The notes: generated by a model from the letters alone, not told the origin. 64,000 nucleotides of DNA from an uncultured beta proteobacterium (GCA_903897925.1 CAIUDG010000136.1:15734-79733); one strand, 5' to 3'. Positions 17,561-52,439 are shown, numbered from the stretch's first letter. Numbers and translations: made by a program.

Positions 17561-17679
17561 ATATGCGCAAAGCTGCGCCCGCTGCCTATTTGTCGCTTTG
17601 TCCCTAGTTCTTGTGACAGGGCGAATATTTCTGCAACTGACAATCGAAAAGTAACTAATTGCCCAGTCAAGGACTATCC

Positions 17680-23600: not shown

Positions 23601-23874
23601 TCCGATCAATGCCCCGGGTGTTCCGCTGCTGGTTGTCAACGCTATCTCGAACTTGACCGGTGCAATCAATACCAGTCTGGTAGAGGTCTATCTGGCAGCG
23701 ATTGTGGATTACAACCCGGTGGCGCTGCAGGCAAGCAGTGCGCCCAACCCGACACCGCACCATGACCCGCGCAGCAGTATTGCGGTGCACCCAGAAAACC
23801 TAATGCCAGGCACCTTGGTCATAGTGATAAACGGCGGCATCAAGATGCCGAGCGACCTGCTTGCTCAAGAATAA
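17680..23874 (+). CDS. Two-partner-secretion exoprotein (TpsA / filamentous-haemagglutinin-like), about 2060 aa
   Basis: AAGGA lies 7 nt before the ATG at 17680. The extended signal peptide is MNRIYRLVWNQALGVLVAVAE plus a second hydrophobic stretch ending AQA. The TPS domain shows NLAINWQGFSI and VLNPNGVLFG. The centre has three modules of about 270 aa, rich in GGLVG (GLUG-type) motifs. Seven YDG/MBG-type repeats follow, then a unique roughly 100-aa C-terminus. Confidence 0.9.
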   Translation: MKSHASMNRIYRLVWNQALGVLVAVAENAKGRGKSSSSRGLVAGALALTGGLFLAPFAQAGPTGGQVSAGAGTIVQSGVSTTINQSSQNLAINWQGFSIAANESVRFNQPNAASVALNRVVGQDPSQILGTLSANGQVFVLNPNGVLFGASAQVSVGGLVASTLALSDADLMANSYTFNSSGASAGRSVTNQGSLSAAQGGYIALLAPEVRNEGVIVAQRGTALLAAGDKVTLKLDNGSLLSYTIDQGAINALADNQQLVQADGGQVLMSAKAANALTTAVVNNSGIVQAQTVQNVGGVIRLLGDMETGSVNVGGTLDASAPAGGNGGLVETSAAHVKVASDAKVTTLAAHGLNGTWLIDPVDFTIAASGGDMTGAVLSSNLAGGDIIIQSSSGTIGGTAGAVNVNDAVSWAANKLTLNAQGNININAAMTATGGASLALQFGQGAIASGNRSSVVFGTAGVVSLPASSTNFSTTQGSDGVAVAYTVITSLGQAGSTTTTDLQGMAGNLAGNYVLGADIDASATAAWNSTYGSYAGFAPVGSSYTNGNRFLGIFDGLGHSISNLTVNQPNTNYVGMFGNTGYESQIRNVSLINANVSGGWIVGALVGGGYGTITNAHSSGTVTGNGSYIGGLAGLNGGSLSNSSSTATVNATGGTWTYDVGGLVGLNDSPISNSHASGVVNASGYNAGGLVGNNYGTVSNSYVNGGSVSAYQGGGGLVGNNGGTVSNSHYDIDAVSINGATGTVSANGLFNTNGVGQFNQWMSTGTLDIANYSASLPGSGNSYTISSVQGIKDMLGFADNPAYTFTLANNLTLSAGLFIPYLAGTFDGGNYTISGFNLSGGSKIGLIGVAASSATIKNVVLTGGIVSGGSYVGALVGVNNGSISNSSSSNGTVSGSGYDVGGLVGLNNYSASITNSFANGSVTGSLPSVSGVGGLVGRNYGTVNSSHASGSVSGSYGVGGLVGFSGGGSINNSYVSSSTVVGDTNVGGLTGGNNGTLSNSHYDIDGVSINGGTAAGPGGLYNTAGTGQYYDWMSNGTLSIANYASTLPGSGNSYTISSVQGMKDLLGFADNASYTFNLANNLDLASAPGLYIPSFAGTFNGAGHTISNLNLLVSSSNQGMFGVTASGAVIVNLGLINDSVVGQDRVGGMVGTNNGSVSNSYASGGVVGAGSYVGGLVGNNQGTISNSYTTGTVSSANGGGNRVGGLVGESDHSGVISNSYSSADTSGAYYAGGLVGLNYGSVSNSYAMGHVSTGYGSGGLIGYNGSSSVTNSFWDTETSGMSSSAAGVGMTTAQIQTSASFNTATAANGNVNPNWDMAGTWIVYDGHTAPLLRSFMTPLTVSAGDSTTAYIGQNYAVSGVNYSVVPNANLLGALFDGAWNVGTYTMGGLYSNQQGYIISYGAGSLTINKADLTLVGSRAYDGTTIVAGSVLTAVGANNETFAVTGAGDASNLTVKNAQTGSPLASLTGLTLGSSSNGGVSSNYNVLTTVGSAVDINKANATVTANSDTSKVYNGLSQSVSGYTVSGLVNGETAAVLTGVSAGGSGTNAGSYATTATGTDSNYNLSFVNGTLTISKANATVTANSDSSKVYNGLSQSVSGFSASGLVNGETTAVLSGVSAGGSGTNAGSYTTTATGTDNNYNLSFVNGNLTISKANATVTANSDSSKVYNGLRQSVSGFSASGLVNGQTTAVLSGVSAGGSGTNAGSYTTTATGSDSNYNLSFVNGTLTISKANATVTANSDSSKVYNGLSQSVSGFTASGLVNHQTTAVLTGVSAGGAGTNAGSYTATATGTDSNYNLSFVNGTLTISKANATVTANSDSSKVYNGLSQSVSGFSASGLVNGQTTAVLTGVSAGGSGTNAGSYTTTATGTDSNYNLSFVNGNLTIAQAHLTVTAGNETRTYGNANPVLTETVSGFVNGQTLATSGVTGTATGTTTATSSTPVGVAVIAANATGLHANNYDFSNLVNGSLTITAPPINAPGVPLLVVNAISNLTGAINTSLVEVYLAAIVDYNPVALQASSAPNPTPHHDPRSSIAVHPENLMPGTLVIVINGGIKMPSDLLAQE
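22168..23337 (+). repeat. Five head-to-tail, near-identical 234-bp (78-codon) repeats inside tpsA
   Basis: Repeat units start with AAAGCCAA(C/T)GCC at 22168, 22402, 22636, 22870 and 23104, an exact 234-nt period. Each encodes KANATVTANSDsSKVYNGLsQSVSGF.ASGLVN..T.AVL.GVSAGGSGTNAGSYTTTATGtDsNYNLSFVNG.LTIS. Diverged copies flank both sides. Confidence 0.9.
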
Positions 23875-23893
23875 ATTGCCTGAAAAAAATACC

Positions 23894-25579
23894 ATGAACA
23901 AGCCCAACATCAAGCTCTCTTTCGTCACCCTGGCCGTGCTGGCCTGCGCCAATGCACTGGCGGCACCACCGGTGCCGGACGCCGGTCAGATCAGCCGTGA
24001 CCTGCAAAATCAACCCGATCTGACAGCGCCCAAGTCGGTCGCGCCGTTGCGTGTCGAGGGGCAGGCGCTGCCACCTGGTGCGAAGTCCGGTGATATACGC
24101 TTTGCCGTCAAGACCCTGCACGTGACGGGCAGCAGCGCATTCAGCGCCCAGGAACTGGAAGCGCTGGTGCAAGATTTGGCGGGCGCCGAGCACAGTCTGG
24201 CCGAGCTGACAGCTGGCGCCGGTCGCATTACTGCCTATTACCGTGCGCATGGCTTTGTGGTGGCGCGCGCCTACTTGCCGGCGCAAGATATCAAAGACGG
24301 CATGGTCGTTATTCATGTGCTGGAAGGCGTGCTCGATCAAAAGCGCCTGAGCAATAAATCGGACCTGTCGGACGACCAGGTCAACCGCTATTTCGCCGAT
24401 CTGAAAAGTGGTGAACCGATCAATTCCAACCAGGTCGATCGCGCCTTGCTGCTGCTGTCGGATGCGCCCGGTGTGGGGGCAGCGCGCGCTGCCTTGCAGC
24501 CTGGCGCCAGTGTCGGCAGTGCCGACCTGCTGCTGGAGCTGGACCCGGCCCAGCCCTATGCTGCAAACCTCGAATTCGACAATTATGGCAACCGTTATAC
24601 CGGCGAATACCGCGCCGGCGCGGCGCTGGTGCTGAACAACCCGCTTCGGCTGGGCGATCTGGCCAGTGTGCGTCTTACCACCAGTGGTCCGGACATGACT
24701 TATGCCCGCGTCGCCTACCAGGTGCCTGTGGGCATGCGTGGCCTTAAAGTCGGTGTTGCCTATTCCGATACCGGTTATCGGTTGGGCCAGGAGTTTGACT
24801 CCCTGCAGGCGCATGGCACCGCCGACAGCGTCAGCCTGTACGCCACCTACCCGCTGCAGCGCAGCCAGCTCAGCAATTTGTCTTGTACCGTGAGCTGGGA
24901 GGGCAAGAAGCTGGTCGATCAAACCGACACCGTGGCGAACTCTACCGTCAGCAAGCAAGTGGATTTGCTGACCTTGGGTCTGACCGGCAGCCAGCAGGAT
25001 GCCTTCTGGGGTGGTGGCCTGACCGGCTTTGATGTGGCCTTGATCGGCGGTAGCCTGTCGATGGATGCTGCCTCGCTGGCACTGGATACGGCGGCAGGTT
25101 CCAGCTTCACTGATGGCTCGTTCAGCAAGCTGACGTATAGCGTGAATCGGCAGCAGCGTGTGAACGACAAATACAGCATGTTGCTGGCGCTGTCGGGCCA
25201 GCAGGCGAGCAAAAATCTGAACTCATCGGAAAAATTCTCGCTCGGCGGTGCCAATGGCGTGCGCGCCTATCCCCAGGGTGAAGCCAGCGGCGACGACGGC
25301 ATTTTGGCCAGCCTGGAAGCGCGCCGCAGTGTGAACGAGCAGATCCAGGCGGTGCTGTTTTACGACGCGGGACAGGTGGATACCAATCGCAATCCCTATG
25401 GCGTAGTGGCGGCCGCCAATACCCGTTTCATTTCGGGTGCCGGCTTCGGATTGAACGGTGCCATTGGCAAGCTGCAATTCAAGTCTTCGCTGGCCTGGAT
25501 TACCAGCGGCGGCGACCCGGTATCGGATACCGCCAACCGTACGCCGCGTCTGTGGTTTCAGTTAAGCTTGCCGCTTTAA
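23894..25579 (+). CDS. TpsB outer-membrane transporter (ShlB/FhaC/HecB family)
   Basis: Start placed at MNKPNIKLSFVTLAVLACANALA, a signal peptide. The POTRA region is TLHVTGSSAFSAQELEALV...YYRAHGFVVARAYLPAQDI.DG.V.I.VLEG. The C-terminal half looks like a beta-barrel. It begins 19 nt after the tpsA stop. Confidence 0.9.
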   Translation: MNKPNIKLSFVTLAVLACANALAAPPVPDAGQISRDLQNQPDLTAPKSVAPLRVEGQALPPGAKSGDIRFAVKTLHVTGSSAFSAQELEALVQDLAGAEHSLAELTAGAGRITAYYRAHGFVVARAYLPAQDIKDGMVVIHVLEGVLDQKRLSNKSDLSDDQVNRYFADLKSGEPINSNQVDRALLLLSDAPGVGAARAALQPGASVGSADLLLELDPAQPYAANLEFDNYGNRYTGEYRAGAALVLNNPLRLGDLASVRLTTSGPDMTYARVAYQVPVGMRGLKVGVAYSDTGYRLGQEFDSLQAHGTADSVSLYATYPLQRSQLSNLSCTVSWEGKKLVDQTDTVANSTVSKQVDLLTLGLTGSQQDAFWGGGLTGFDVALIGGSLSMDAASLALDTAAGSSFTDGSFSKLTYSVNRQQRVNDKYSMLLALSGQQASKNLNSSEKFSLGGANGVRAYPQGEASGDDGILASLEARRSVNEQIQAVLFYDAGQVDTNRNPYGVVAAANTRFISGAGFGLNGAIGKLQFKSSLAWITSGGDPVSDTANRTPRLWFQLSLPL

Positions 25580-35981: not shown

Positions 35982-38240
35982 TTAGGTACTGCACGGCAGC
36001 ACCAGGGCCTCGAATGCCGTCACCGGCAGCGGTCTGGCGAACAGATAGCCCTGGTAGCACTGGCAGCCCAGCGTCGCTAGCAGGTCGCGCTGGGCGCTGC
36101 TTTCCACGCCTTCGGCAATCACCGACAGGCCCATGCTGTTGGCCAGCGCAATCACCATGCTGGCAATCGCCGCGTCGTTCGGGTCGTCCAGGATGTCGCG
36201 CACGAAACTCTGGTCGATTTTGAGCTGGTCCAGTGGCAGTTGCTTGAGGATGGACAACGAGGAATAGCCGGTGCCAAAGTCGTCCAGCGCAAAGTTCAGG
36301 CCGCTTTGCTTCAGGGCGTGCATCTTGGCAATCACGGCATCCACTTCGGAGACCAGCAGGCTTTCGGTCAGTTCGAGCTTGAGTCGGTCGGCCGGGGCGC
36401 CGCTGCGCTCCAGCGCGCGCAGTACCTGATCGACAAAGTCGGCTTGGCGGAATTGCCGCGCGCTGACGTTGACGGCCAGCGTCAGGTGCGCCAGTCCGGG
36501 CTGCCTGGACCAGCGCGCCAGTTCGTTGCAGGCGCTTTGCAGCACCCAGGCACCGATGGGCAGAATCAGGCCGGTCTCCTCTGCCAGCGCAATGAACTCT
36601 GCCGGAGGCACCAGGCCGCGCGACGGTTCCAGCCAGCGCAGCAACGCTTCGGCGCCAATGAAGCGGCCGGTCTCGTCGACCTGGCCTTGGTAGTGCAGAC
36701 AGAACTGCTCTTTGGCCAGGGCCTCGTGCAGTGCGGCTTCCAGCGCCGCCCGGTGGTTGGCTGCCGTTTGCATTTGCGGGTCATAAAAACGCAGCATATT
36801 GCGGCCGGCGGACTTGGCCTGGTACATCGCCATCTCGGCCTGAATCAGGGGATCGACGCTGATTTCCTGCGGGTTGCCAAACAGGGTGATGCCAATGCTG
36901 GCACTGCCGTGGTGTTGAAAGGTTCCCAGCTGGTGGCGCTGGCGCAGTGCCTGCAGCGCTTTCTCGCTGATGGCTTCGGCATGGGTCGCGGCTTCTTGTG
37001 AACTGCCGCCCAGGTCTTCCAGCAGCATGACAAACTCATCACCGCCCAGGCGGGCGACGGTGTCGCCGTCGCGCACGCAGGCGCCGAGTTGGGCCGCCAC
37101 ATGCCGTAACAGCTGGTCGCCCAGTTCCTGGCCCAGGGTTTCGTTGAGCGATTTGAAGTTGTCCAGGTCGACGAATACCAGTGCGCCCTGGCGCTGGTGG
37201 CGCTGCGCTGCGGCGAGTGCCTGTTGCAGCCGGTTCAGAAACAGGCGCCGGTTCGGCAAGCCGGTCAGGGGGTCGGAGAAGGCCAGTTGCTGGACCTGCT
37301 GTTGCGCGGCTTTGCGTTCGGTGATGTCGTGTATCGCCACCTGGATGGCGTGGGCGCCATCCAGAACAATGCCGGCACTGGTGACTTCGGCGTGGATCAC
37401 AGAGCCATCGAGCTGCAGCAGTTTTTGTTCGCTGGACGGCGCCACGCCGTCTGCCTGTGCCAGGGCGGTAAGCTGCGCCTGCATGGCGCTGTGCGAGTCC
37501 GGGTGCACCAGCTCGAACAGCGGCTTGCCGATCAGGTCCGTGGCCTGGCGTGCGCCAAACAGCGCGACGGCGGCCGGATTGGCATAGATAAAGCGCGTGC
37601 CGTCGTGCACTGCCAGTGGCGCGGGCGTCCATTCGATCAGGGTGCGGTAGCGCTCTTCGCTGTCGCGCCGTTTGGCAAAGGCCTTTTCCAGGCCCTTGAG
37701 CAGCAGCACGCAGCTGAAGGAAATCAGGGCGCTGACAAAGCTGAAGTTGAGGGTGATGACGACCCACTTCATCAGCGGTGTCGCGTCAAAGCCGGCAATC
37801 GGAAAGTCGGCCTGGGTCCAGTAGCCGACCAGTGGCAGCGTCAGCGCGTTGACAGCCATGGCCAGCAGCGAGGCCCGCAGTCCGATCATCAGCGCCGCCA
37901 GGACCGGCACCGCCAGCAGGTAAATTTGACTCGGTGCGCCGATGGCAAGCAGCAGCGCCAGGCCGAGCAGGTACAGCAGCAGACAGAGGTTCCAGGCCCG
38001 TGCGCGGTACGACAGTGAGCGATACCCAGCCAGGCAGGCGACCCAGATGACGGCCATCAGGTCGGCCAGCGCGACTGACCAGAGTCCTTTCGACACGGCC
38101 AGCAGTATGCTCGGCACCGCGACTGCGGCACCCATCACCGTCGCGCCAAACAGGAACAGCGCAAGCACGCGTTCGCGCCAGGTTGCGAAGTCATCCCGGT
38201 CAACGTCGAGCAGGAGCGTGTGAAGATAAGACTGCAGCAT
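35982..38240 (-). CDS. Membrane-anchored PAS-GGDEF-EAL protein (c-di-GMP synthase/phosphodiesterase)
   Basis: The roughly 190-aa N-terminus is polytopic, followed by a PAS domain. The GGDEF domain is intact with an I-site (RDGDTVARLGGDEF). The EAL signatures are EALLRW, ELTES and DDFGTGYSSL. Confidence 0.9.
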   Translation of the reverse strand: MLQSYLHTLLLDVDRDDFATWRERVLALFLFGATVMGAAVAVPSILLAVSKGLWSVALADLMAVIWVACLAGYRSLSYRARAWNLCLLLYLLGLALLLAIGAPSQIYLLAVPVLAALMIGLRASLLAMAVNALTLPLVGYWTQADFPIAGFDATPLMKWVVITLNFSFVSALISFSCVLLLKGLEKAFAKRRDSEERYRTLIEWTPAPLAVHDGTRFIYANPAAVALFGARQATDLIGKPLFELVHPDSHSAMQAQLTALAQADGVAPSSEQKLLQLDGSVIHAEVTSAGIVLDGAHAIQVAIHDITERKAAQQQVQQLAFSDPLTGLPNRRLFLNRLQQALAAAQRHQRQGALVFVDLDNFKSLNETLGQELGDQLLRHVAAQLGACVRDGDTVARLGGDEFVMLLEDLGGSSQEAATHAEAISEKALQALRQRHQLGTFQHHGSASIGITLFGNPQEISVDPLIQAEMAMYQAKSAGRNMLRFYDPQMQTAANHRAALEAALHEALAKEQFCLHYQGQVDETGRFIGAEALLRWLEPSRGLVPPAEFIALAEETGLILPIGAWVLQSACNELARWSRQPGLAHLTLAVNVSARQFRQADFVDQVLRALERSGAPADRLKLELTESLLVSEVDAVIAKMHALKQSGLNFALDDFGTGYSSLSILKQLPLDQLKIDQSFVRDILDDPNDAAIASMVIALANSMGLSVIAEGVESSAQRDLLATLGCQCYQGYLFARPLPVTAFEALVLPCST

Positions 38241-39806: not shown

Positions 39807-39911
39807 CGGCCAAAGCCGTGCCTACAGGGGTTACAGTTACGCCCGTGGATCACGAGGCCCTGCGTGTGCGGGTGCTGGCTATTCGATCGCAGAAACCAAG
39901 GAAGAATTTGT

Positions 39912-40625
39912 ATGGGTGCACAGTGGAAAGCCAAAGGCAAGGAACTGGCGGCGAATGCCAAAGGCCGCATGTTCGGCAAGTTGGCCAAAGACATCATGAT
40001 CGCCGCGCGCAGTGGCGCTGACCCGGCAAGCAATTCGCGCCTGCGACTGGTAGTGGAGCAGGCGCGCAAGGTGTCCATGCCGAAAGACACGCTGGAGCGT
40101 GCTATTAAAAAAGGTGCCGGTCTGACCGGGGAGTCGGTCAGCTTTGACCACGTGATCTACGAAGGCTATGCGCCGCACCGGGTGCCGCTGATGGTTGAGT
40201 GCCTGACCGACAACGTGAACCGCACGGCGCCGGAAATGCGCGTGCTGTTTCGCAAGGGGCAGCTCGGTACCTCCGGTTCGGTGGCCTGGGATTTCGACCA
40301 CCTCGGCATGATTGAAGCCGAGGCCAGTGCCCCTGGCGCCGATGCCGAAATGGCGGCGATTGAAGCCGGTGCGCAGGACCTGGAGCCGGCCGACGCGCAG
40401 GGCATGGTGATGTTCCTGACCGACCCGACCGATCTCGACCTGGTCTGCCGCGCCCTGCCAGCACAGGGCTTTACGGTGCTCAGCGCCAAGCTCGGTTACA
40501 AGGCCAAGAACCCGATCGATCCGGCCAGCCTGAGTGCCGAACAGCTGGAAGAAGTGGAAGCCTTTCTGGCCGCCATTGACGACAACGACGACGTGCAGAA
40601 CGTCTACGCCGGTCTGGGCGCTTAA
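39912..40625 (+). CDS. YebC/PmpR-family transcriptional regulator
   Basis: Start placed at [11 protein letters not shown], with AAGGAAG upstream. Signatures are [22 protein letters not shown] and [13 protein letters not shown]. Its stop overlaps the convergent DUF2894 gene's stop at 40622-40625. Confidence 0.9.
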
Positions 40626-41284
40626 GCCTCCGGGGTGCCGGGCGCCGGGCTGGCGGCCGGTTTGCGCCGGGGCCGGCCGGTGCTGGCAGTGCCGGACTTG
40701 CTGGCGCCGGTACTGGCGCGGACCGGCTCGGTTTCGCGCAGTTCCAGGCAGAGCAGGGTGTCGGCGTAGCACATGAAGCGGTTCAGGTAGTCGGGCGAGA
40801 TGTCGCGCATCAGGCCCAGCGAGCGCAGCACCAGCATGTGCGAGTTCAGCGGACCGGCGTTTTTCGGCGCCTGCGCCAACGATTTTTTCACCTGTTTGTC
40901 GCTGCTGAGTTTGGACCAGGTGTTGCGGAATTTGCGCACCGAGTGCAGCTCCGGGCGTGCGCTGTCCTGGCGTTCGGCGCTGCCCGGCGACTGCTGCGCC
41001 AGGTAGTGCAGCAAGGCGGCCAGCGGGCGCGGCGCGGCGTCTGGCGCCGACGCCTGTGTCGGCACCTGTGTTGGCGCCTGTGTCGGCACTTGTGCCTGGT
41101 GGCGCGCGCTCCAGTCGGCGAAGGCGCCGGCTAGGCGGTTTTTTAGCAGGGCCTGGACTTTGTCGTTTTGTCCCTGGGCGCGGCGGGCCAGCGCTTCCAT
41201 ATAGGCAAAGCGCACCGGGTCAAACTGCTGCGCTCCGGCCAGGCGCAAGGCCGCAAGCTGTTGTTCAAGCTCTGCCAGCGTCAT
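40622..41284 (-). CDS. DUF2894-like protein (fourth gene of the MotAB-like cassette)
   Basis: 220 aa. Segments [16 protein letters not shown] and [29 protein letters not shown] match my memory of DUF2894 proteins. The ATGA overlap with the MotB-like gene is at 41281-41284. No enzymatic motif. Confidence 0.7.
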
Positions 41285-41922
41285 GGCGTGCGGTTCTTGG
41301 CGGCGCCGCCCCTGGGCACGGGCGCCAGTTCTACACGCCGGTTTTGTGCGCGTGCGCTCTCATTGGTGTTCGGCGTGATGGGCTGCTCCGAACCGAAGGC
41401 GGCGGCAAAGACCAGCGCAGACGGCATGCCGGCGTCAATCAGCGCGCGCGTGACGGTCAGCGCGCGCTGGGCTGACAGTTCCCAGTTGTCGGTGTAGCGG
41501 GTGTTGCTGGCGCGGATTGAATGGTCGTCGGTAAAGCCGCTGATCATCAGCAGTTCGTCGCGCGCGCCCAGATAGGCGCGCAGCGGCGTCACCAGGCTGT
41601 TCAGCAGTTGCCGGCCTTCGGGCTGCAATTCGTCGGAATTCAGTGAGAACAGCAGGCGCCCGCTGATGCCGATGCGGCCGTTGTTCAGCGTGATGCGGCC
41701 GGATGCCAGCGGCACTGCCAGCGCTTGCTCCAGGCCCATGCGGCGCTGCTCTTCGACCTGGCGTTTCTTCACTTCGTCCTGCAGGTTGGCACTGAGCTGG
41801 GCCTGCACCAGCAGCACGCCCACCAGCAGCAGCACGAAGGCGCCCAGCAGACCCGACATCAGGTCGCCAAACACGGCCCAGGCCGGTGCGGTGTGTTCCA
41901 GGCCGGCGTCCACCTCGTCCAT
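41281..41922 (-). CDS. MotB-like stator subunit with an OmpA-type peptidoglycan-binding domain
   Basis: There is a single N-terminal TM helix with a conserved-type Asp (WAVFGD20LMSGLLGAFVLLLVGVLL). The C-terminal OmpA-like motifs are ISGFTDD, NWELSAQRALTVTRAL and NRRVEL. Its start overlaps the upstream stop (TGATG, 41920-41924). Confidence 0.85.
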   Translation of the reverse strand: MDEVDAGLEHTAPAWAVFGDLMSGLLGAFVLLLVGVLLVQAQLSANLQDEVKKRQVEEQRRMGLEQALAVPLASGRITLNNGRIGISGRLLFSLNSDELQPEGRQLLNSLVTPLRAYLGARDELLMISGFTDDHSIRASNTRYTDNWELSAQRALTVTRALIDAGMPSALVFAAAFGSEQPITPNTNESARAQNRRVELAPVPRGGAAKNRTP

Positions 41923-43973
41923 CAGGCCACCTCTTCGGTTTGCGCTGCCGGCTTGCTGCTGAGTTCGCGCAAACTATCCACAATGTCTTTTTGCGAGGCC
42001 ACGCTCAGATCGATCAGTTCACGCGCCTGGGCCACGTAATAGGCCAGCTGGTCGTCGCTGCGAAGCATGGACTTGTTCATTGCCGTTTCGATGCGCTGCA
42101 GCTGGCCCAGCAGCTGTTCGTTGGCGCTCTGGAACGACTGCACCGCCTGCGCGAAGGACTCGCCCAGGCTGGAAACTTCCAGGGCGCTGCCGCTGACCTG
42201 GGCGGCCACCTCGGCGAGCTTGCCGGCCTCGGCGCCGAGCTGTTCCGAAAACTGGCTGCCGGCCTGGTTCAGGGCGACGGCGGCCGAGGCCACCAGGGAG
42301 TCGATGACGGCGCGCTGTTCGCCGGAGGCGTGGTTGATGCTGTCCAGCAGCGCGCTCAAGGTTTCCATGATGCGGCTGCGCTCTTCCAGCAAGGCGTTGT
42401 CACGCGCCATGCTGTGCGAGATTTCCTGGCGCAACTGGCCGATCACTTCGGCCGCCGCGCGTGGTGCTTCGGAAGCGGTCTGGATCAGGCGTGTGATGGG
42501 CGCTTCCAGCGCGCAGCCGAGCGTGCTCAGATGTTCGGTCAGGGCGCTTTGCAATTCGGCCAGCCGGTCTACCGCGGCCTGGCCGCGTTCGGCTTCGGCG
42601 TCGCGCAGTGCCGCCAGTTCGGTGTGCATCAGGGTGCCGAGCTGTTCCATGCGCGCGCCGTGTTGCTGGGTCCATTGCGCTTCGGCGTCCAGGCGTGACT
42701 GCACCAGGGCCTGGGCACTGTCGACCAGGCGCGTGATGTCGGCCTGGGTGCTGCTGTGGCTGGCCTGCGCCTGGGTGCTGAGTTGCTGGGCGCTGTGCGC
42801 CAGCGTGTCGCAAAGTGCCTGCTGCTGGGCCAGGGTCTGTGCGCCGGCCTGTTGCCAGGCCTGGTTCAGGTTGCTGGCGATGGTTTCGAGCTGCGCGGTC
42901 CAGGCTTGCAGGCGTTGCTGGTCACCGGCGTCTTGTGCGCCCTGCAGCTGGCGGTAGGCCTGGCCCACTGCCAGCAGCAAGTCGTCGGAGCGTTGTGCGA
43001 AGCGGCTGTTCAGGCGCTCCAGCGACTGTTCCATGGCGCTGGCCAGTCCTTGCTGCATCTGGCTGGTTTCGTGCGCGATGGCATCCATGGCGGCTTGCAG
43101 CGCCGGGCGGATGCTGTCGCTCGCGGCCTGGGCGCTTTGTGTCAGGCTGTGGCGCAGCGTCTGGTCGACCGATTCGGCCAGTCCGGTGTAGGCGTCCCGG
43201 GCTTCGCGGTGGAAGCGGTCCTGGCTGTCGAGCAAGCCCTGGTTCAGTTGCTGCTGCATCTGTGCCATTTGCTGCACCATGGCCTGCAGCGTGTCCACCA
43301 CGGCGGGCAGGGCGTGTGCCTGGACCTGCAGTGCCTGGAACGCTTGCTGGCGCTGGTGCCTGAGGGAAAAATGCGCCAGCTGGCTGGCCATGCAGGATTC
43401 CAGCTGCTGCACCACCTGCATGCGTTCGCGCCGGCACAGGGCCGACAGCAGGCCCAGCATGGCCGAGCTGGCCACGCCAGCCACCGAGGTGCCAAAGGCC
43501 AGCCCCAGTCCCTTGATCGGGGTCGCAAAGGCGCTGCGGATGGCTTGCAGGTCGGTGCTGCTTTCCAGCGTGAAGGCGGCGCCATTCAGGGTCAGCACCA
43601 TGCCTAGGAAGGTGCCCAGCATGCCCAGCATCACCAGCAGGCCGACCAGGTAGGGCGTGAGGGTTGGGCCGGGCAGACCGACGCGTTCGCCTTCAATGCG
43701 CTGGCGTACCGGATTTTGCAGTTCCGCCGGCACCTGCACCAGCCAGCTGCCGAGTTGCGTTAAACCATCCGGAATCTGTTGCAGGGCCTGTGCCAGGCCG
43801 TGGCTGGACTGGCGAAAGCGGTGCAGCTCGAGGCTGCCCAGTCCGTAGGCGGCGGCAATCAGCAGGGTCATGGCCAGGGCCAGCAGATGGCCGTTGACGA
43901 AACCGGCACCGATCCAGAGCAGCACCAGGGCGCCAGCGGCAAAAACGAGGGAAAAAAGGTGTTTGTTCATCAT
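41922..43973 (-). CDS. MotA/ExbB-like membrane protein with a roughly 500-aa C-terminal coiled-coil tail (DUF802-like)
   Basis: 683 aa with four TM helices. The TM3/TM4 region (LVGLLVMLGMLGTFLGMVLTL ... GLGLAFGTSVAGVASSAMLGLLSAL) resembles the MotA/TolQ/ExbB channel core. The rest is uninterrupted Q/A/L/E-rich helix. The ATGA overlap with the upstream gene is at 43970-43973. Confidence 0.8.
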   Translation of the reverse strand: MMNKHLFSLVFAAGALVLLWIGAGFVNGHLLALAMTLLIAAAYGLGSLELHRFRQSSHGLAQALQQIPDGLTQLGSWLVQVPAELQNPVRQRIEGERVGLPGPTLTPYLVGLLVMLGMLGTFLGMVLTLNGAAFTLESSTDLQAIRSAFATPIKGLGLAFGTSVAGVASSAMLGLLSALCRRERMQVVQQLESCMASQLAHFSLRHQRQQAFQALQVQAHALPAVVDTLQAMVQQMAQMQQQLNQGLLDSQDRFHREARDAYTGLAESVDQTLRHSLTQSAQAASDSIRPALQAAMDAIAHETSQMQQGLASAMEQSLERLNSRFAQRSDDLLLAVGQAYRQLQGAQDAGDQQRLQAWTAQLETIASNLNQAWQQAGAQTLAQQQALCDTLAHSAQQLSTQAQASHSSTQADITRLVDSAQALVQSRLDAEAQWTQQHGARMEQLGTLMHTELAALRDAEAERGQAAVDRLAELQSALTEHLSTLGCALEAPITRLIQTASEAPRAAAEVIGQLRQEISHSMARDNALLEERSRIMETLSALLDSINHASGEQRAVIDSLVASAAVALNQAGSQFSEQLGAEAGKLAEVAAQVSGSALEVSSLGESFAQAVQSFQSANEQLLGQLQRIETAMNKSMLRSDDQLAYYVAQARELIDLSVASQKDIVDSLRELSSKPAAQTEEVA

Positions 43974-44668
43974 GGTGTTGACGCGGGTTCCTGTTGCAGG
44001 GCTTCGATCAGCCCTTGCGTGGTCTGCAGCCGGAGCTCAAGCTCGGCCAGCAAGACGGTTTGAAGTTCTGTGCCAAAGTCGCTCGGGGCGTGGCTGGCAG
44101 GCGGATTTTTGTGCCAATGCGCAAAGCGGCGCATCAGCAATTGCGGCACGCTGGCCAGTAAACGGGTTTCGCGCTCTTGCAGTATGGCGTCAAAGGTGGC
44201 GTCCAGTGCGGCCAGCTGGCGCAGTGCCGGGCTGCTGCGCGCCAGTGCCTCGCGCACTTTGCCGCGCAGCGGCGCAATGGCCAATTGCATGTCGCGTTGT
44301 TGCGTCTGGTAGTAGCGCCGGAACGGGTCGTAGGCGGCGCTGAGTTCACGTGCGCTGCTGTGGGCCAGGGCGTCGGGCTCCAGCGCTGGCGGCTGGCTGC
44401 TGCGGATGCTGTGTTCCAGCCCGCTGCGCAGGCGCTCGAATGCGTCGGCCAGGGCCGCGCCGGCACCCGGTGTGGCTGGTGCGGGCGCTGGGCCTGGACC
44501 GCTGTTGTGCACCGCGCACAGCGTGATGGCGTCCGTATAGTTCACCCACAGGCCCAGGTTTTCCGCCAGCGCATGGCCCGGCGCCGGCGCTTTTACTGCG
44601 GCCAGGTCGGCAAGCACACGAACAAGTCTGGAACTGTGGAAATGGGTACGCGGTCGAACTCGCGTCAT
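43970..44668 (-). CDS. DUF3348-like protein (first gene of the MotAB-like cassette)
   Basis: ORF 43970-44719. I prefer the start at MTRVRPRTHFHSSRLVRVLADL (44668), but 44719 is possible. The N-terminal pattern (F..S.L.R.LA.L....ALAENLGLWV...DAITL) matches my memory of DUF3348 proteins. No enzymatic motif. Confidence 0.65.
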   Translation of the reverse strand: MTRVRPRTHFHSSRLVRVLADLAAVKAPAPGHALAENLGLWVNYTDAITLCAVHNSGPGPAPAPATPGAGAALADAFERLRSGLEHSIRSSQPPALEPDALAHSSARELSAAYDPFRRYYQTQQRDMQLAIAPLRGKVREALARSSPALRQLAALDATFDAILQERETRLLASVPQLLMRRFAHWHKNPPASHAPSDFGTELQTVLLAELELRLQTTQGLIEALQQEPASTP

Positions 44669-44777
44669 AGGCAGGAGGTATCCAAATCGAAAAAACAGGG
44701 CAGCGCCTGAAAAACCCACCCCGTTCGCCGGCGAACTTGTGTGAAGCGGCCCCGGATTTTACTTGAGAAGCCCGGGC

Positions 44778-45530
44778 TTAGATCGTGTCCGGCGGCAGGC
44801 AGTCGGCGCCGGCTACGGGCGTGCTGTAGGGCAGCAGTGCTTTGGCTGCTTCAATGCGCAAATGCAGTTCGACGCGCGTGTCGTTCATCACGGCTTGCAG
44901 GAATTGCCGGGGCTGCAGCTCGGTGCTGGGGGCGCTGCTGAATCGCGGTGCCAGCGCACTGGCGCTGTGTGGCAGCTGCACCGGTGGCGGTGCCGGTGCC
45001 GGCGTTGGAGCGCTGGGGGTGCGGGTGAGTTGCTCCAGTGCGGCCTGAAACGCGGCTGGTTTGGTGCTTTCGATGCGCCCCAGCACCAGGGCCTGCGCTT
45101 GCGGGTTGGGCGGCAGGTCGAGCCAGGGTTCGTCGGAAAAAATGGCGGCCAGGTCGGGCGCAATGAAGGCCGACCAATGTCCGTTGTCTGGCAGCAACGC
45201 GGGCAGTGTCACCGGTGCGGCGGTGAACAGACCGATGCGGCTGCTGGCCAGCGTGCCCACATAGCGCCCACGCAGCGCGTCCAGAAACGCCCGCGCCTGC
45301 GCCAGTGGCACCGGCGTGGTCAGAGAAAACCACAGCTGGAAGCCATCTTTGCCATTCACAGCAATGGCCGGTGCTGGCAACTCCAGCTCGCTCTGCACGC
45401 CGCGCCACAGCGGTGACAGCAGCGACCAATCGGCCGGGCGCGCCAGTTCCAGCACCAGGGTGCAGGTTTGCTGCGCTGCGGCTGCTTGGCTGGGGTACAG
45501 ACGCTGGAACTCGGCTTGCAATGTGCTCAT
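44778..45530 (-). CDS. Hypothetical protein with a Pro/Ala-rich central linker
   Basis: 250 aa. It starts 9 nt after the stop of the upstream GGDEF-EAL gene. The linker is PSAPTPAPAPPPVQLP. No family recognised and no clear SD. Confidence 0.5.
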   Translation of the reverse strand: MSTLQAEFQRLYPSQAAAAQQTCTLVLELARPADWSLLSPLWRGVQSELELPAPAIAVNGKDGFQLWFSLTTPVPLAQARAFLDALRGRYVGTLASSRIGLFTAAPVTLPALLPDNGHWSAFIAPDLAAIFSDEPWLDLPPNPQAQALVLGRIESTKPAAFQAALEQLTRTPSAPTPAPAPPPVQLPHSASALAPRFSSAPSTELQPRQFLQAVMNDTRVELHLRIEAAKALLPYSTPVAGADCLPPDTI

Positions 45531-45539
45531 ACCGCGACT

Positions 45540-48500
45540 TTAAGCCAATTGCGCCGGCGTCTGGCGCCAGTTGCCGACCCAGGCCAGTACCTGGTCCGCT
45601 GGCATTGGCCTGGATATGCCATAGCCTTGGGCATAGGGGCAACCCATTTGCTGCAGCAGCTGGCCAAGTTCCAGGGTTTCGACGCCCTCGGCAATGACCT
45701 CGCGGTGCAGCGCCGCCGCCAGCTGGATGACGCCGCGCACAATGCCCAGGTCTTCCGGGTCAGTCAGCATGTTGCGCACAAAACTCTGGTCGATTTTCAG
45801 GGTGTCCACCGGCAGCTTGCGCAAGTAGGTCAGCGAGGAATAGCCGGTGCCAAAGTCGTCCAGCGAAAAATGCACGCCCAGCGCCTTGCAGCAATGCAGG
45901 ATGGCAGCTGCTTGTTCTATGTCGGCCAGCGCGGCGGTCTCCAGCACTTCCAGTTCAAAGTTGGATGCCAGCACCTGCGGGTGCTGTTGCAGCGCCGTTT
46001 CCAGGTGCTCGGTAAAGCCCGGCAGCAACAGATGGTTGGCGCTGACGTTGACGCTGACGCGCAGGCGCAGACCCTGGGCCTGCCAGTGGTCGATTTGCGA
46101 CAGCGCGGTTTCGATGACCCATTCGCCCAGCGGGCGCTCCAGCTGGCTGCCGGTGACCTGCGGCAAAAATTCGCCCGGCGCCAGCAAGCCGCGCTCCGGG
46201 TGTTGCCAGCGTATCAAGGCCTCCATGCCGATGACTTCGCGGGTGTCGAGGTTGACTTTGGGCTGGTAGAACAGCACAAATTCCTGCTGCGCGAAGCCAC
46301 GCTGCACCCGCGCCAGAAATGCGCGGTGCTGTTGCGCCACGCGGTCCAGCGTCGCATCAAACAGCTGGTAGCGGTTCTTGCCGGCCTGCTTGGCCAGGTA
46401 CATGGCCTGGTCGGCGTGGCGCAGCAAGGTATCCGGGTCGGCGTTGTCGTCGGGGTACAGGCTGACACCAATACTTGCGGTCAGGCGCAGGCTGTGCCCG
46501 GCCACCTCGAGCGGCTGCTGCACCGCCAGCAACACGCGGTCCAGCACCATGGCGAACTCTTCGGTGGAATTGACTTCGGACAGCAGCAGCACAAATTCGT
46601 CGCCGCCCATGCGTGCCAAGGTGTCTTCGCTGCGCAAGGCACCTTGCAGCAGCTGGCTTACCGCCACCAGCACCATGTCGCCGACCGAGTGGCTGTACTG
46701 GTCGTTGATTTCCTTGAAGCCGTCCAGGTCCAGGAAGCACACAGCGCTGGATTTGCCGCTGCGCAGCGAGCGCGCAAAGGCTTGCCGCAGCCGGTCTGAC
46801 AGCAGGCGGCGGTTCGGCAGCTCGGTGAGTGAGTCATAGTTGGCGGCATGCTCGAGCTCGACTTCATGGGCCTTGAGCTGGCTGATGTCGGTGTACAGGC
46901 TGACGTATTGCTGGATACGACCGTTCTGGTCGCGCACCGCGGTGACCGATTGCAAGGCAGCATAGATTTCGCCGGATTTCTTGCGGTTCCAGATTTCGCC
47001 GTGCCAGAAGTCGTTTTGCTTCAGGGCGCTCCAGAACGTCTGGAAGAAGGCGATGCTATGGCGCCCGGAGGCGAGCAGCTTGGGCGACTTGCCCCGTACC
47101 TCGTCGATTGCATAGCCGGTCATGCGGGTGAAGGACGGGTTGATGCGATGGATCAGGCCGTTGGCGTTGACCACCATGATGCCCTGGTAGCTGTGTTCAA
47201 ACACCGCCGAGGCCTCGAGTTGCGCGGCTTCCAGCCGCTTACGCTCGGAGATGTCGGTGTGGGTGCCGGACATCATCAGCGGCTGGCCGTTGTCGGCGCG
47301 CGAGACAACGCGTCCGTTGGTCAGAATCCAGCGCCAGTCACCCTGTTTGGTCTTGCAGCGGATCTCCACCTCGTGGCGTGGCGTCTCGCCGCGCAAATGG
47401 GCTTGAATCGAGGCCTGCGCCTTGGGCAGATCATCCGGGTGGACCAGGGCCGGCCAGTGTGCGACATCGACCTGGATTTCCCCCGGTGCATAGCCGAGCA
47501 TGGTTTGCCAGCGGTCGCTGACCTGGAACGCATTGGTCTGCATATTCCAGTCCCAATAGCCCTGATCGGAGCCTGCCAGCACGCGCGACAGCTGTTCTTC
47601 GCTGTGGCGCCGTGCGTCTTCGATTTTGTGGCGTTCGCTGATGTCGGTGCCGAGCACGTAATAACCTGTCACCTGCCCGTTGACGTCGGTGAGGGGCAGG
47701 TAGTTGATCATTTGCCAGACGCCGGGGAAGGGCTCCCAGTCGTAGCTTTGCGCTTCGCCCCGCAGTGCCTTGCTGATCAGCGGCTCGGCGATCTGGTAGC
47801 GCGTTTCGCCCAGCACCGTGCGCACCGGGTGGCCGGTCAGGTCACTGATGTCGGGTGCAAAGCGTTGCCGGTACTGTTCGTTGACGTACAGGTAGTTGCG
47901 CTCGGCGTCGACGCAGGCAATCAGCGCCGGCAGGTTGTTGATGATGTGGAACAGATGGTGCTGGCTCGCCTGCAGCTGTTTGCTGCGTTCGGCGACGCGC
48001 TGTTCCAGCAGCTGGTTCTGGTTCTGGATCGTGCGCTTGGCCTGGCGCGCCAGGGTTTCATCACGGAACACCAGCACCACGCCCGATACATTGCCTTGCG
48101 GGGTGCGCATGGGTGAGGCGCTGTCGGCGATGGGAACTTCCTGGCCGTCGCGCGCAATCAGCAAGGTGTGGTTCGCCAATTCATGGATTTCACCGGTGGC
48201 CAGCACCCGGGCTACCGGAATCTCGGCCGGCAGGCGGGTTTCCTCGTGAACGATGTGAAATACCAGATCAATCGGCTGGCCCAGGGCTTCGGCCTCGCCC
48301 CAGCCGGTAAGGTGCTGCGCCACCGGATTGATGTGGGTAATGCGCCCGGCGATGTCGGTGGCCAGCACGCCATCGCCAATTGAGCGCAGTGTGATGGCCA
48401 GTTTTTCCTGGCTGTGCGCCAGGTCGCGCCGGTGCTGCTCGGCGTTCAGAATCTGGTGCCGGATGGTGCTGTAGGCGACCATCAGGAAGCCCAGCAAGAG

Positions 48501-49094
48501 CAGGGACGCCAGCGCGCTGAAGTTGGCCAGGCGCTGATTGGCCTGGGTTTGCTGGGCCAGGCGCTGGTCGAGCACGCTGCGTTCGTCTTGCTGCATTGCC
48601 GCCAGCAGCACAGCGCTCTGGTTGCGGGTGGCTTGCAAAGGGGCCGAATTGGCGATGCTGTTGGCAGCACGCAGGTTGCCGGATTTGCGCAGCGTTTCGA
48701 TCTGGCGTGAAATCGCCAGCCGCTGGTTGAGTACGTCGCGCAGCTGGTCCCAGCGATCGTGTTGTACTTCGTTGTCGGCGGTATGCAGCCGGATTTGTTG
48801 CATCAGCGCTTCGCGCGAACGGATGGCTGCGTCGCGTTCCTGCAATCTGGCCGGGTCGCCAGTGATGCGAAAGCTCTGCGTGCTGAGTTCAACCTGGATG
48901 GTGTCGGCGCGCGCGCGCTCCATCGTGTTGATGGATTCCTGGGTCTGCATGACCAGACCATCGGCGACGGCGGAATCGTGCGCCAGCTGCCAGGTGATGC
49001 CGGTCATGAGTGCGACGACGACGGTAGAAGCGGCGAAAGCGGTAAGAACCCGGGATTCAATACTTGTTGACAGCTTCACAGACACCCTTTGCAT
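45540..49094 (-). CDS. CHASE3-PAS(xN)-GGDEF-EAL signalling protein
   Basis: 1184 aa. The N-terminus is a TM helix, a CHASE3-like helical domain, then a second TM helix. Several PAS/PAC modules follow. The GGDEF domain has an I-site (RSEDTLARMGGDEF). The EAL signatures are EALIRW and DDFGTGYSSL. Confidence 0.9.
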   Translation of the reverse strand: MQRVSVKLSTSIESRVLTAFAASTVVVALMTGITWQLAHDSAVADGLVMQTQESINTMERARADTIQVELSTQSFRITGDPARLQERDAAIRSREALMQQIRLHTADNEVQHDRWDQLRDVLNQRLAISRQIETLRKSGNLRAANSIANSAPLQATRNQSAVLLAAMQQDERSVLDQRLAQQTQANQRLANFSALASLLLLGFLMVAYSTIRHQILNAEQHRRDLAHSQEKLAITLRSIGDGVLATDIAGRITHINPVAQHLTGWGEAEALGQPIDLVFHIVHEETRLPAEIPVARVLATGEIHELANHTLLIARDGQEVPIADSASPMRTPQGNVSGVVLVFRDETLARQAKRTIQNQNQLLEQRVAERSKQLQASQHHLFHIINNLPALIACVDAERNYLYVNEQYRQRFAPDISDLTGHPVRTVLGETRYQIAEPLISKALRGEAQSYDWEPFPGVWQMINYLPLTDVNGQVTGYYVLGTDISERHKIEDARRHSEEQLSRVLAGSDQGYWDWNMQTNAFQVSDRWQTMLGYAPGEIQVDVAHWPALVHPDDLPKAQASIQAHLRGETPRHEVEIRCKTKQGDWRWILTNGRVVSRADNGQPLMMSGTHTDISERKRLEAAQLEASAVFEHSYQGIMVVNANGLIHRINPSFTRMTGYAIDEVRGKSPKLLASGRHSIAFFQTFWSALKQNDFWHGEIWNRKKSGEIYAALQSVTAVRDQNGRIQQYVSLYTDISQLKAHEVELEHAANYDSLTELPNRRLLSDRLRQAFARSLRSGKSSAVCFLDLDGFKEINDQYSHSVGDMVLVAVSQLLQGALRSEDTLARMGGDEFVLLLSEVNSTEEFAMVLDRVLLAVQQPLEVAGHSLRLTASIGVSLYPDDNADPDTLLRHADQAMYLAKQAGKNRYQLFDATLDRVAQQHRAFLARVQRGFAQQEFVLFYQPKVNLDTREVIGMEALIRWQHPERGLLAPGEFLPQVTGSQLERPLGEWVIETALSQIDHWQAQGLRLRVSVNVSANHLLLPGFTEHLETALQQHPQVLASNFELEVLETAALADIEQAAAILHCCKALGVHFSLDDFGTGYSSLTYLRKLPVDTLKIDQSFVRNMLTDPEDLGIVRGVIQLAAALHREVIAEGVETLELGQLLQQMGCPYAQGYGISRPMPADQVLAWVGNWRQTPAQLA

Positions 49095-51146: not shown

Positions 51147-52439
51147 TCAGGGGAAGAAGGGGGCAAACAGGTCGCGCAGCTTCTTTACCGCGTCGAGCTG
51201 CGCCGGGCGCATTTCCTGGCGCACTTCCCAGTCGCAGTAGACCAGGCCGGAGACCTGGCTGGAGGCAATCGGCACGATGATGAATTGCCGGACCAGTGGC
51301 AGCAGCTGGCGGTACACCGCCGGCAAGGCCGAGGGTTTCAGGCGCGTGGTGTCGTCAATCACAATTTCGACCTTGTTGCGGATCGCCAGATGAAAGGCCG
51401 TGGGTGCAAACTCCGCAGCAATAATCAGTTGCTGTTGCAGTGCCTCCAAGTGCGGACCGTAGCCGGCACGGATGCGAAATTCGCCGGAGCGCGTCAGCAT
51501 GAACAGCAGGCAGCGGTTGGACTGCAGGGTGCCGGCATAGAGCGGCAGCATGACTTTGGCCAGGTCGTCGATGACGCGCCGCTTTTCCTGCCGGATGGCG
51601 CTGTGCAGTTGGCCGATGGCGGCGGGGCTGGCGGGCGGTGCCGGGGCCACCACCGGGGCCGGTGGTGGTTGTACGTCAGCGATTTTTGTGCGGATCAGGG
51701 TGTCCAGGCCGGCCTTGTCGACATCCGGCAGGTCCAGTGCCTGCAACAATTCCTGCACCAGCTCGCTCTTGCCTTGGTAAACCAATGCGGCGGCCTGGCT
51801 GGAAAAGCGGGAAATCCCCACCAGGGTCGGGTCCCCGGTGCCGTTGATGCTGGACAAAATGTAATTCGGCAGGTTCCAGCGGCTGGCCAGTTCAACGCCG
51901 ATTTCCTGGAACGACATGCCCAGCACGTCGCTGGCGGCGTCTTGCGCGTCCACCCCCAGGCTGCACAGGCGCTCGATGGCACGTGCTTCTTCGGGCAGGT
52001 ATTTGGCAGTCATGAGCTGACCGATCTGGAACATCAGCGTGGCGATGGAGGCATCTTCGGCGCGGGCGCCGCAGGCCTGGCGCGCCAGTTCCGAGGCGAA
52101 CAGCGTTTGCGACAGGCTGGCATCGGCGCGCAACTCTTCCTCGGTGATCAGGTCGGTGCTCAGTACCAGGTGCATCAGGGCTTCCGGGTCGAGCACGTTC
52201 AGGGCCGCAGTTACCGAGGCGGCACCGACGCCAAAGGGCGCGTACATGGACGAGTTGGCCAGCTTCAGCACGCGCTGCGTCAGCGCGAAATCTTCGATGA
52301 TGTGCTTGACCACTTCTTGCTTGCCGGTGTCGTCGCTGTCGAGCGCGCCGAGCACGGACACCACGGAACGTTCCGAGGCGGGAACCCCGGGTGACGCCTG
52401 CATGGCATGGATCAAGCGGTCAAGAATGGGCGTACTCAT
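51147..52439 (-). CDS. HDOD-domain signalling protein with a C-terminal GAF-like region
   Basis: The HDOD signature is IIEDFALTQRVLKLANSSMYAPFG. The start overlaps the stop of the upstream GGDEF-EAL gene (ATGA, 52436-52439). Confidence 0.8.
   Translation of the reverse strand: MSTPILDRLIHAMQASPGVPASERSVVSVLGALDSDDTGKQEVVKHIIEDFALTQRVLKLANSSMYAPFGVGAASVTAALNVLDPEALMHLVLSTDLITEEELRADASLSQTLFASELARQACGARAEDASIATLMFQIGQLMTAKYLPEEARAIERLCSLGVDAQDAASDVLGMSFQEIGVELASRWNLPNYILSSINGTGDPTLVGISRFSSQAAALVYQGKSELVQELLQALDLPDVDKAGLDTLIRTKIADVQPPPAPVVAPAPPASPAAIGQLHSAIRQEKRRVIDDLAKVMLPLYAGTLQSNRCLLFMLTRSGEFRIRAGYGPHLEALQQQLIIAAEFAPTAFHLAIRNKVEIVIDDTTRLKPSALPAVYRQLLPLVRQFIIVPIASSQVSGLVYCDWEVRQEMRPAQLDAVKKLRDLFAPFFP

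Follow-up and report, generated by a model that had tools for sequence, protein, structure and literature searches.

The region analysed here is a stretch of 64,000 nucleotides from an uncultured beta proteobacterium (GCA_903897925.1, CAIUDG010000136.1:15734-79733), hereafter the window, whose positions are counted from its first letter. Calling of open reading frames (ORFs) on the window located four consecutive ORFs on the minus strand, spanning positions 40622-44668, which constitute the Zorya type III cassette zorG-zorA-zorB-zorF. The naming followed here is that of PADLOC, in which ZorG is the DUF3348 protein and ZorF the DUF2894 protein. The two names are swapped between sources, since the text of Payne et al. 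2021 takes the DUF3348 protein as ZorF and the PADLOC hidden Markov model (HMM) for DUF3348 is ZorG3, while the Methods of Hu et al. (PMC11946911) give both zorFABG and zorGABF. From 5' to 3' on the coding strand, the features of the cassette are the following:

44669..44777, minus strand: spacer 5' of zorG, 109 bp, presumed promoter or leader of the cassette, without a consensus sigma-70 site
43970..44668, minus strand: zorG (PADLOC name; the text of Payne et al. 2021 has ZorF), which opens the cassette, DUF3348, soluble all-alpha protein of 232 aa
41922..43973, minus strand: zorA, 683 aa, with a membrane head (residues 1 to ca. 200) and an acidic helical tail (ca. 201-683)
41281..41922, minus strand: zorB, 213 aa, with Asp20 followed by a transmembrane (TM) segment at residues 21-39 and, in the periplasm, an OmpA-type domain at 92-195 that binds peptidoglycan
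40622..41284, minus strand: zorF (PADLOC name; the text of Payne et al. 2021 has ZorG), DUF2894, 220 aa

A preliminary description of this region had reported four minus-strand genes with overlapping stop and start codons, and all three junctions were read in the sequence exactly as claimed: the stop codon of zorG overlaps the start codon of zorA at 43973-43970 (...ccATGAtgaac), the stop codon of zorA overlaps the start codon of zorB at 41924-41920 (...gccTGATGgac), and zorB and zorF share an ATGA at 41284-41281 (...gccATGAcgctg). The longest ORF for zorG begins at a GTG codon (43970-44719), and the ATG at 44668, which yields the 232-aa protein, is favoured as the start because the N-termini of the homologues share the sequence MTRV.PRTHFHSS. 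The G+C content is locally 0.66, slightly higher than the window average of ca. 0.61. A scan for promoters, terminators and operators rendered nothing near either end of the cassette, including the 44669-44777 spacer, and a 12-bp palindrome at 44724-44735 (TTCGCCGGCGAA) was found only in loci of the same species, with no conservation beyond it. At the 3' end, the stop codon of zorF overlaps that of a convergent gene of the yebC/TACO1 family (39864-40625, plus strand) within the palindrome TTAA at 40622-40625; the spacer between both genes is zero, and no terminator-like structure was detected there.

The four proteins were matched end to end by the PADLOC models of the type III system, with E-values of 6.4e-64 for ZorG3, 4.5e-251 for ZorA3, 2.4e-107 for ZorB3 and 1.9e-63 for ZorF3, and the Pfam profiles DUF3348 (ZorG, 2.7e-55), OmpA (ZorB, 1.3e-16) and DUF2894 (ZorF, 4.1e-54) were also matched. 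Both kinds of search had been proposed in the preliminary description, and both bore out its family assignments save for DUF802, for which Pfam rendered no hit at E<=0.01 with this ZorA, even though homologues do carry that domain. The genes lie on the same strand, in single copy and in the canonical zorGABF order, as stated by Hu et al. (PMC11946911), and the order is identical in all complete related loci; as in type III systems, the DUF3348 gene is directly upstream of zorA and the DUF2894 gene directly downstream of zorB. Weaker PADLOC matches to type I and type II models were also obtained (ZorA1, 1.1e-12; ZorB2, 1.3e-7). PADLOC matched no ZorC, ZorD or ZorE in the cassette, in the genes next to it or in 28 further large ORFs of the window, and the cassette does not fit types I or II, there being neither ZorC plus ZorD nor ZorE beside zorAB. 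A flagellar MotAB stator was likewise rejected: no Pfam MotA_ExbB match was found at E<=0.01, ZorB fell below the cut-offs of all MotB, MotS and MotD models of NCBIfam, a Pfam survey of the window detected no flagellar genes, and no FliG-type, flagellar or TonB/TolA partners could be recognised in it.

We identify the locus as a complete Zorya type III system and consider this nearly certain; the cassette is an ordinary copy of an already known, catalogued and phage-tested system type. The arrangement of these four families was named Zorya type III by Payne et al. 2021 (PMC8565338), who counted 6,401 instances and cloned the system of Stenotrophomonas nitritireducens DSM 12575 in Escherichia coli BL21-AI, where it lowered the plaquing of one or more of the five phages used, and protected liquid cultures at a multiplicity of infection (MOI) <0.1. 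The preliminary description, which had spoken of a bioinformatic candidate for a type III Zorya, was therefore right about the type and too cautious about its status, since the type has been tested against phage. An anti-phage function of the locus studied here is predicted by analogy with the S. nitritireducens homologue.

Four hydrophobic segments were found at the start of ZorA by Kyte-Doolittle hydropathy (residues 8-26, 30-48, 109-127 and 158-180), in keeping with the four TM helices described previously; this count comes from hydropathy alone, and the type I ZorA of E. coli has three. Residues 109-193 align with the structure of the Shewanella type I ZorA (8vvn_C, E 1.3e-6), which was also the only entry of the Protein Data Bank (PDB) reached by a profile of 13 ZorA heads (8.6e-5), and residues 110-192 matched the NCBIfam model antiphage_ZorA_2 with an E-value of 1e-8, under the cutoff of the model. 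Pfam rendered no significant match for ZorA, neither MotA_ExbB (E<=0.01) nor DUF802, and only a sub-threshold one to the helix repeats of ApoLp-III. Because Pfam MotA_ExbB is not matched, the link between this protein and MotA is a transitive one that passes through ZorA; the MotA/ExbB/TolQ-like channel core that had been proposed is thus backed by 8vvn_C and PADLOC ZorA1, and a direct Pfam match to that family is missing. In an alignment with 11 homologues, the regions of TM3 (101-125) and TM4 (151-175) are more than 0.9 identical. Both T121 and S163 are fully conserved among 13 homologues, within a GT and a TS dipeptide that the alignment places over the ZorA structure; as judged from this alignment, they are the likely equivalents of the ion-path residues Thr147 and Ser184 of EcZorA. 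ZorB was described as a MotB-like protein with one TM helix, an Asp at position 20 and an OmpA-type C-terminus, and it is indeed so: hydropathy places a single TM segment at 21-39, the stretch PAWAVFGD20LMSGLL aligns onto PYWMSFSDLMSGLL of 8vvn_B with D20 over the Asp of that chain, and the C-terminus, besides its Pfam OmpA hit, matches the MotB, PomB, YfiB, ZorB and OmpA domains of the PDB. ZorB also matched the NCBIfam model PRK09040 (1.5e-106).

The ZorA tail (residues 201-683, 483 aa) is rich in A (17.6%), Q (14.5%), L (12.4%), S (9.7%) and E (6.6%), contains 5 Pro and has a net charge of -24. Its composition and periodicity are those of a helical region, and no domain was matched in it beyond the sub-threshold ApoLp-III, which agrees with the helical tail of roughly 500 aa, devoid of catalytic motifs, that had been noticed earlier. 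The hydrophobic periodicity of the tail peaks at 3.6-3.67 residues, not at 3.5, with a power of 2.95 versus 1.2 for the 99th percentile of shuffled sequences. In the alignment with 11 homologues, identity is 0.23-0.35 in the middle of the tail (301-425), where nearly all the indels are found, and 0.5-0.75 in its distal half (426-683), which includes the near-invariant motif QLAYYVAQAR (639-648). Measured from anchor to anchor, the middle of the tail differs in length from that of the window by -33, +11, -11, -22 (in three related loci) and -55 residues, and in a further case by +40, with a 4-residue insert elsewhere. The differences seen in close relatives are multiples of 11. A search with ZorA of 1.84 billion representative proteins rendered 535 matches at E<=1e-30, of which the best 150 (461-1,122 aa) were used to analyse the spacing; both anchors were present in 132 of them, and the length between the anchors ranges from ca. 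335 to ca. 915 residues. The differences in spacing among these 132 representatives are non-uniform modulo 11 (chi2 68.2, 10 degrees of freedom; classes 0, 3, 4 and 7 enriched), a statistic that is indicative only, since the representatives share ancestry and are phylogenetically non-independent, whereas the same differences are uniform modulo 7 (chi2 3.9). Because lengths are quantised modulo 11 and the periodicity is 3.6-3.67, the sequence of the tail points to a register-keeping coiled coil of the hendecad rather than the heptad type.

The two partner proteins were studied with 627 homologues of DUF3348 and 2,006 of DUF2894, aligned in sets of 55 and 54 sequences, respectively. The AlphaFold2 model of ZorG (predicted local distance difference test, pLDDT, 81; predicted template modelling score, pTM, 0.76) consists of long helices packed in a bundle (69-90, 106-143, 147-187 and 196-225), with a poorly predicted N-terminus. 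Hydropathy revealed no TM segment in ZorG, and a Foldseek search with the model found nothing significant, the best E-values being 0.23 in the PDB and 0.13 in BFVD. ZorF is also modelled as all-helical (pLDDT 72.5, pTM 0.40), with an N-terminal helical hairpin (1-65, pLDDT >93), a low-complexity linker, a core (111-185) and a disordered basic tail (186-220). The helical core is the most conserved part, with 24 invariant residues, and yet its pLDDT is only 55-81; this combination of high conservation and low model confidence suggests that the core may fold against a partner. A variable, low-complexity and disordered C-terminal tail of 12-41 residues, with a net charge of +3 to +11, was found in 54/54 DUF2894 homologues, all of which are also positively charged as whole proteins, while ZorA tails range from -13 to -30.

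Foldseek rendered nothing significant for ZorF in the PDB (best E 2.3), and a PspA/ESCRT-III-like fold for DUF2894 was rejected, as it relied on generic long-helix matches (E 2.3-7.5, TM-score ca. 0.17) of a model with a pTM of 0.40. Profile searches of PDB sequences and Pfam scans of each member (E<=1) gave, for both partners, no significant match beyond their own DUF. A hidden enzyme in the partners was rejected in view of the AlphaFold2, Foldseek, profile and Pfam results, none of which provided a significant match, and the absence of a recognisable effector, which was a central point of the preliminary description, holds at the level of folds, both partners being all-alpha with no catalytic fold found. 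The Pfam family PF20142 ('Scaffold domain') weakly matches 10 of the 54 DUF2894 homologues (best E 0.0026) and does not match the ZorF of the window.

In comparison with known systems, the cassette shares with Zorya type III the four families, their order and strand, the translational coupling and the long ZorA tail, the architecture being identical; this copy differs in coming from a Comamonadaceae-like betaproteobacterium, in lacking a DUF802 match, and in being a stand-alone chromosomal cassette convergent with yebC. The comparison with type I Zorya drew on its cryo-EM structures from E. coli and from Shewanella (Hu et al. 2024/25; Mariano et al. 2025). In that type, ZorA5B2 is a proton-driven rotary motor whose tail of ca. 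70 nm is required for the recruitment of ZorC and ZorD, and type I Zorya provides direct immunity (Hu et al., PMC11946911). Shared with it are the TM core of ZorA, the TM segment, Asp and OmpA-type domain of ZorB, and a tail of ca. 480 residues here versus ca. 500 (ca. 70 nm) there. In contrast, DUF3348 and DUF2894 proteins replace here the DNA-binding ZorC and the helicase-nuclease ZorD, the head is distant, so that only ZorA 109-193 aligns, a short cytoplasmic loop of ca. 60 aa joins TM2 to TM3, and hydropathy counts four hydrophobic segments against the three TM helices of EcZorA (PMC11946911). With type II (ZorABE) the cassette shares the ZorAB core, as seen in the PADLOC ZorB2 match at 1.3e-7, but not the HNH endonuclease ZorE. 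The MotAB/PomAB and ExbBD/TolQR motors also have a B subunit with a single TM segment, a conserved Asp and an OmpA-like domain, and an A subunit with a glycine-rich TM3/TM4 pair, but they lack the coiled-coil tail of ca. 480 aa.

The explanation that we favour, with a probability of about 0.85, is that of a complete Zorya type III system made up of a ZorAB motor and helical adaptor partners. By homology to the type I and type II ZorAB, Asp20 of ZorB would carry the ion along a path lined by T121 and S163 of ZorA, and the OmpA-type domain of ZorB would clamp the complex to peptidoglycan once a phage perturbs the envelope. Ion flow would then drive the ZorA ring round, and with it the cytoplasmic tail of ca. 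480 residues, which would measure ca. 70 nm if it were one continuous helix. This rotary mechanism, with A5B2 stoichiometry and ion-driven rotation, is probable by analogy with the type I motor. The tail would be a hendecad-type coiled coil whose length could change only in steps that preserve the register, and its conserved distal half could serve as a docking platform for ZorG and ZorF, which would act as non-enzymatic adaptors. The basic disordered tail of ZorF is the best candidate for a contact with the entering phage DNA or with the acidic ZorA tail, and defence could take place without a nuclease encoded by the system, the entering genome being blocked, sequestered or handed to a host factor. 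This last part, the adaptors and the non-nucleolytic output, is put forward only tentatively.

Several points weigh against the favoured explanation. The genes around the cassette are housekeeping and signalling ones rather than those of a defence island, and Pfam MotA_ExbB is not matched by ZorA. The ZorF model is of moderate quality (pTM 0.40), and a small active site might be hidden in a helical fold of a new kind. For type III systems, the A5B2 assembly and the rotation are predicted by homology, and the binding of ZorF and ZorG to the tail is putative. Phage activity was shown for a gammaproteobacterial system, and the closest ZorA found to that of this locus is 74% identical. Finally, the published protection in liquid was seen only at MOI <0.1, which is equally compatible with abortive infection.

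The main rival explanation is that the system acts by abortive infection through a controlled proton leak, with the ZorAB channel itself as the effector and ZorG and ZorF as its gate or regulators. This idea is the hypothesis of Doron 2018 as restated by Payne 2021 (PMC8565338): upon sensing of the phage, an unplugged stator would dissipate the proton-motive force and the infected cell would stop. It would account for the lack of a detectable catalytic domain in any of the four proteins, it fits the proposal of Payne et al. (PMC8565338) that ZorF and ZorG regulate ZorAB activity, and protection restricted to MOI <0.1 is a pattern frequent in abortive systems. However, the immunity provided by type I Zorya is direct and depends on the tail for effector recruitment (PMC11946911), and an effector consisting only of a channel gives no reason for a conserved distal region on a coiled coil of ca. 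70 nm, nor for the kept register. We hold the proton leak to be unlikely, even though it and the adaptor model are inseparable on the present data. A mechanical defence devoid of any effector, in which the rotating tail together with ZorG and ZorF would capture, wind or occlude the phage DNA, or remodel the membrane at the site of entry, appears improbable; in such a defence the basic tail of ZorF would suit a contact with DNA and the quantised length of the ZorA tail would tune its reach.

A different possibility is that the cassette is a vertically inherited core locus of Burkholderiales encoding a housekeeping motor for envelope stress or surveillance, a housekeeping role in surveillance having been considered already in the preliminary description; the phage phenotype in E. 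coli would then be a by-product of over-expression. Copies of the family abound in Burkholderia, Ralstonia, Xanthomonas and Stenotrophomonas, and it was found in 166 plasmid records, mostly Ralstonia megaplasmids and Burkholderiaceae chromids, 135 of them being Ralstonia megaplasmids. In the window, the cassette is surrounded by housekeeping and cyclic di-GMP (c-di-GMP) genes, with no match to a specific model of a defence system in the scan of the 33 other ORFs, and the synteny HPPD, ORF250 (a gene described below), zorGABF, yebC, GST, thioesterase is shared with one related lineage (loci L014/L015). That lineage is nevertheless the only one that keeps it. In a scan of one genome per species, 10 loci from Hydrogenophaga and other Comamonadaceae were obtained, with ZorA identities of <=52%; in all 10 the genes stand in the order G-A-B-F, as far as the contig extends, and none keeps the neighbours of the window. 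An all-against-all comparison of the flanking ORFs of 14 loci rendered no family common beyond one genus-level clade. The ZorA of L014/L015 is the closest found (the one with 74% identity), most others being 43-61% identical, and ZorG, ZorF and the middle of the tail diverge fast, with identities of 35-71% versus 67-88% for ZorB. The surroundings of the cassette in other genomes, reached through ZorG and ZorF homologues, a plasmid database and ORF250, are illustrated by the following loci:

Noviherbaspirillum cavernae: RF-1 domain gene and QSregVF_b gene upstream, DEAD-box helicase gene downstream
Rhodoferax lacus homologue contig: HigB/HTH (helix-turn-helix) toxin-antitoxin pair beside the cassette
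Burkholderiales metagenome-assembled genome: PhdYeFM/DUF6036 and SWIM/DUF6493 genes beside the cassette
Aquabacterium olei, 366-kb plasmid: integron integrase and IS3 transposase within 8 kb of the cassette
Ralstonia megaplasmid: type III effector gene nearby
Locus L025: cassette directly after rpsD-rpoA-rplQ, in the opposite orientation

The reversal of the cassette beside rplQ, its presence on a plasmid close to an integron integrase and an IS3 element, and the toxin-antitoxin genes that often adjoin it are at odds with a core locus, as is the existence of Rhodoferax-type loci in which a homologue of ORF250 is followed by other genes and no Zorya. Moreover, components of type III systems are up-regulated upon phage exposure in two species, phage-associated expression changes of these genes having been reported in two transcriptome studies. 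The housekeeping alternative is thus not supported and appears very unlikely, the four genes recurring as a module with unrelated flanks; because their order is kept while the flanks differ in nearly every lineage examined, the cassette behaves as a self-contained accessory module placed in an ordinary chromosomal neighbourhood. Carriage by phages was not detected, as tblastn gave no match in 50,697 phage records. The gene upstream of the cassette, ORF250 (250 aa, 44778-45530), could in turn be an overlooked fifth component that supplies the missing nucleic-acid-acting function. It lies on the same strand, ca. 110 bp from zorG, it encodes a genuine conserved protein that has 3,262 homologues and falls in no Pfam family, it adjoins Zorya III cassettes in two arrangements, co-directional in the window and L014 and convergent in L025 (the loci examined were L013, L014, L019, L020, L021 and L025), and it has weak matches of the archaeo-eukaryotic-primase type. 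Those matches, however, are far below significance (E 0.0026 for PADLOC PrimPol; E 0.37 for Pfam AEP-TOTE, with a single homologue), and nothing turned up when the PDB was searched with a profile. At least 13 other Zorya III cassettes have no ORF250 within 6-10 kb, and a homologue of the gene is present in four Rhodoferax-type loci, where it is translationally coupled, through a 4-bp overlap, to the stop of a gene for a 270-aa 5'-3' exonuclease, with downstream genes that differ each time and no Zorya nearby; besides, the validated type III system consists of four genes (Payne et al. 2021, PMC8565338). Because it is absent from at least 13 other Zorya III loci and is elsewhere coupled to an exonuclease without Zorya, ORF250 is ruled out as a Zorya component, the chances of a fifth component being extremely low. 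That it repeatedly adjoins Zorya could be explained by an ancestral neighbourhood that was later inverted, or by a hotspot for cargo genes downstream of ORF250, and the gene may be a marker of such a hotspot or one half of an uncharacterised exonuclease-associated pair. In lake-type metagenome contigs, the match to ORF250 is 100% identical and that to zorG 99%.

Regarding the remaining genes of the window, the only matches to defence models among the 33 ORFs were those of a generic RtcR/PspF-type activator and the sub-threshold PrimPol of ORF250. Genes related to c-di-GMP bracket the cassette, with domains MASE11-PAS-GGDEF-EAL (35982-38240), CHASE3, several PAS, GGDEF and EAL (45540-49094, 1,184 aa), and HDOD (51147-52439). 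The 1,184-aa CHASE3 gene is missing from the otherwise syntenic L014, and it looks like a lineage-specific insertion between HPPD and ORF250. Further away, positions 17659-23874 (plus strand) encode a 2,071-aa exoprotein of two-partner secretion (TPS), with an ESPR signal, a TPS domain and GLUG and MBG_2 repeats, and the 572-aa ORF that comes after it (23861-25579, plus strand) may be its transporter.

The finding represents one more correctly recognised copy of a catalogued system, which any PADLOC run would annotate, and as such it changes little. The wider question is how a Zorya motor protects the cell without ZorC and ZorD or ZorE; our literature searches found no explanation, and full-text searches brought up no study of the structure or mechanism of the type III ZorF and ZorG. 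Were the mechanical defence true, no nuclease would be needed for protection. Handles on the mechanism are provided by the 11-residue steps of the ZorA tail with its conserved distal half, by the two non-catalytic helical partners and by the basic tail of DUF2894 proteins, and the cassette, being compact (4.05 kb) and self-contained, is convenient for cloning.

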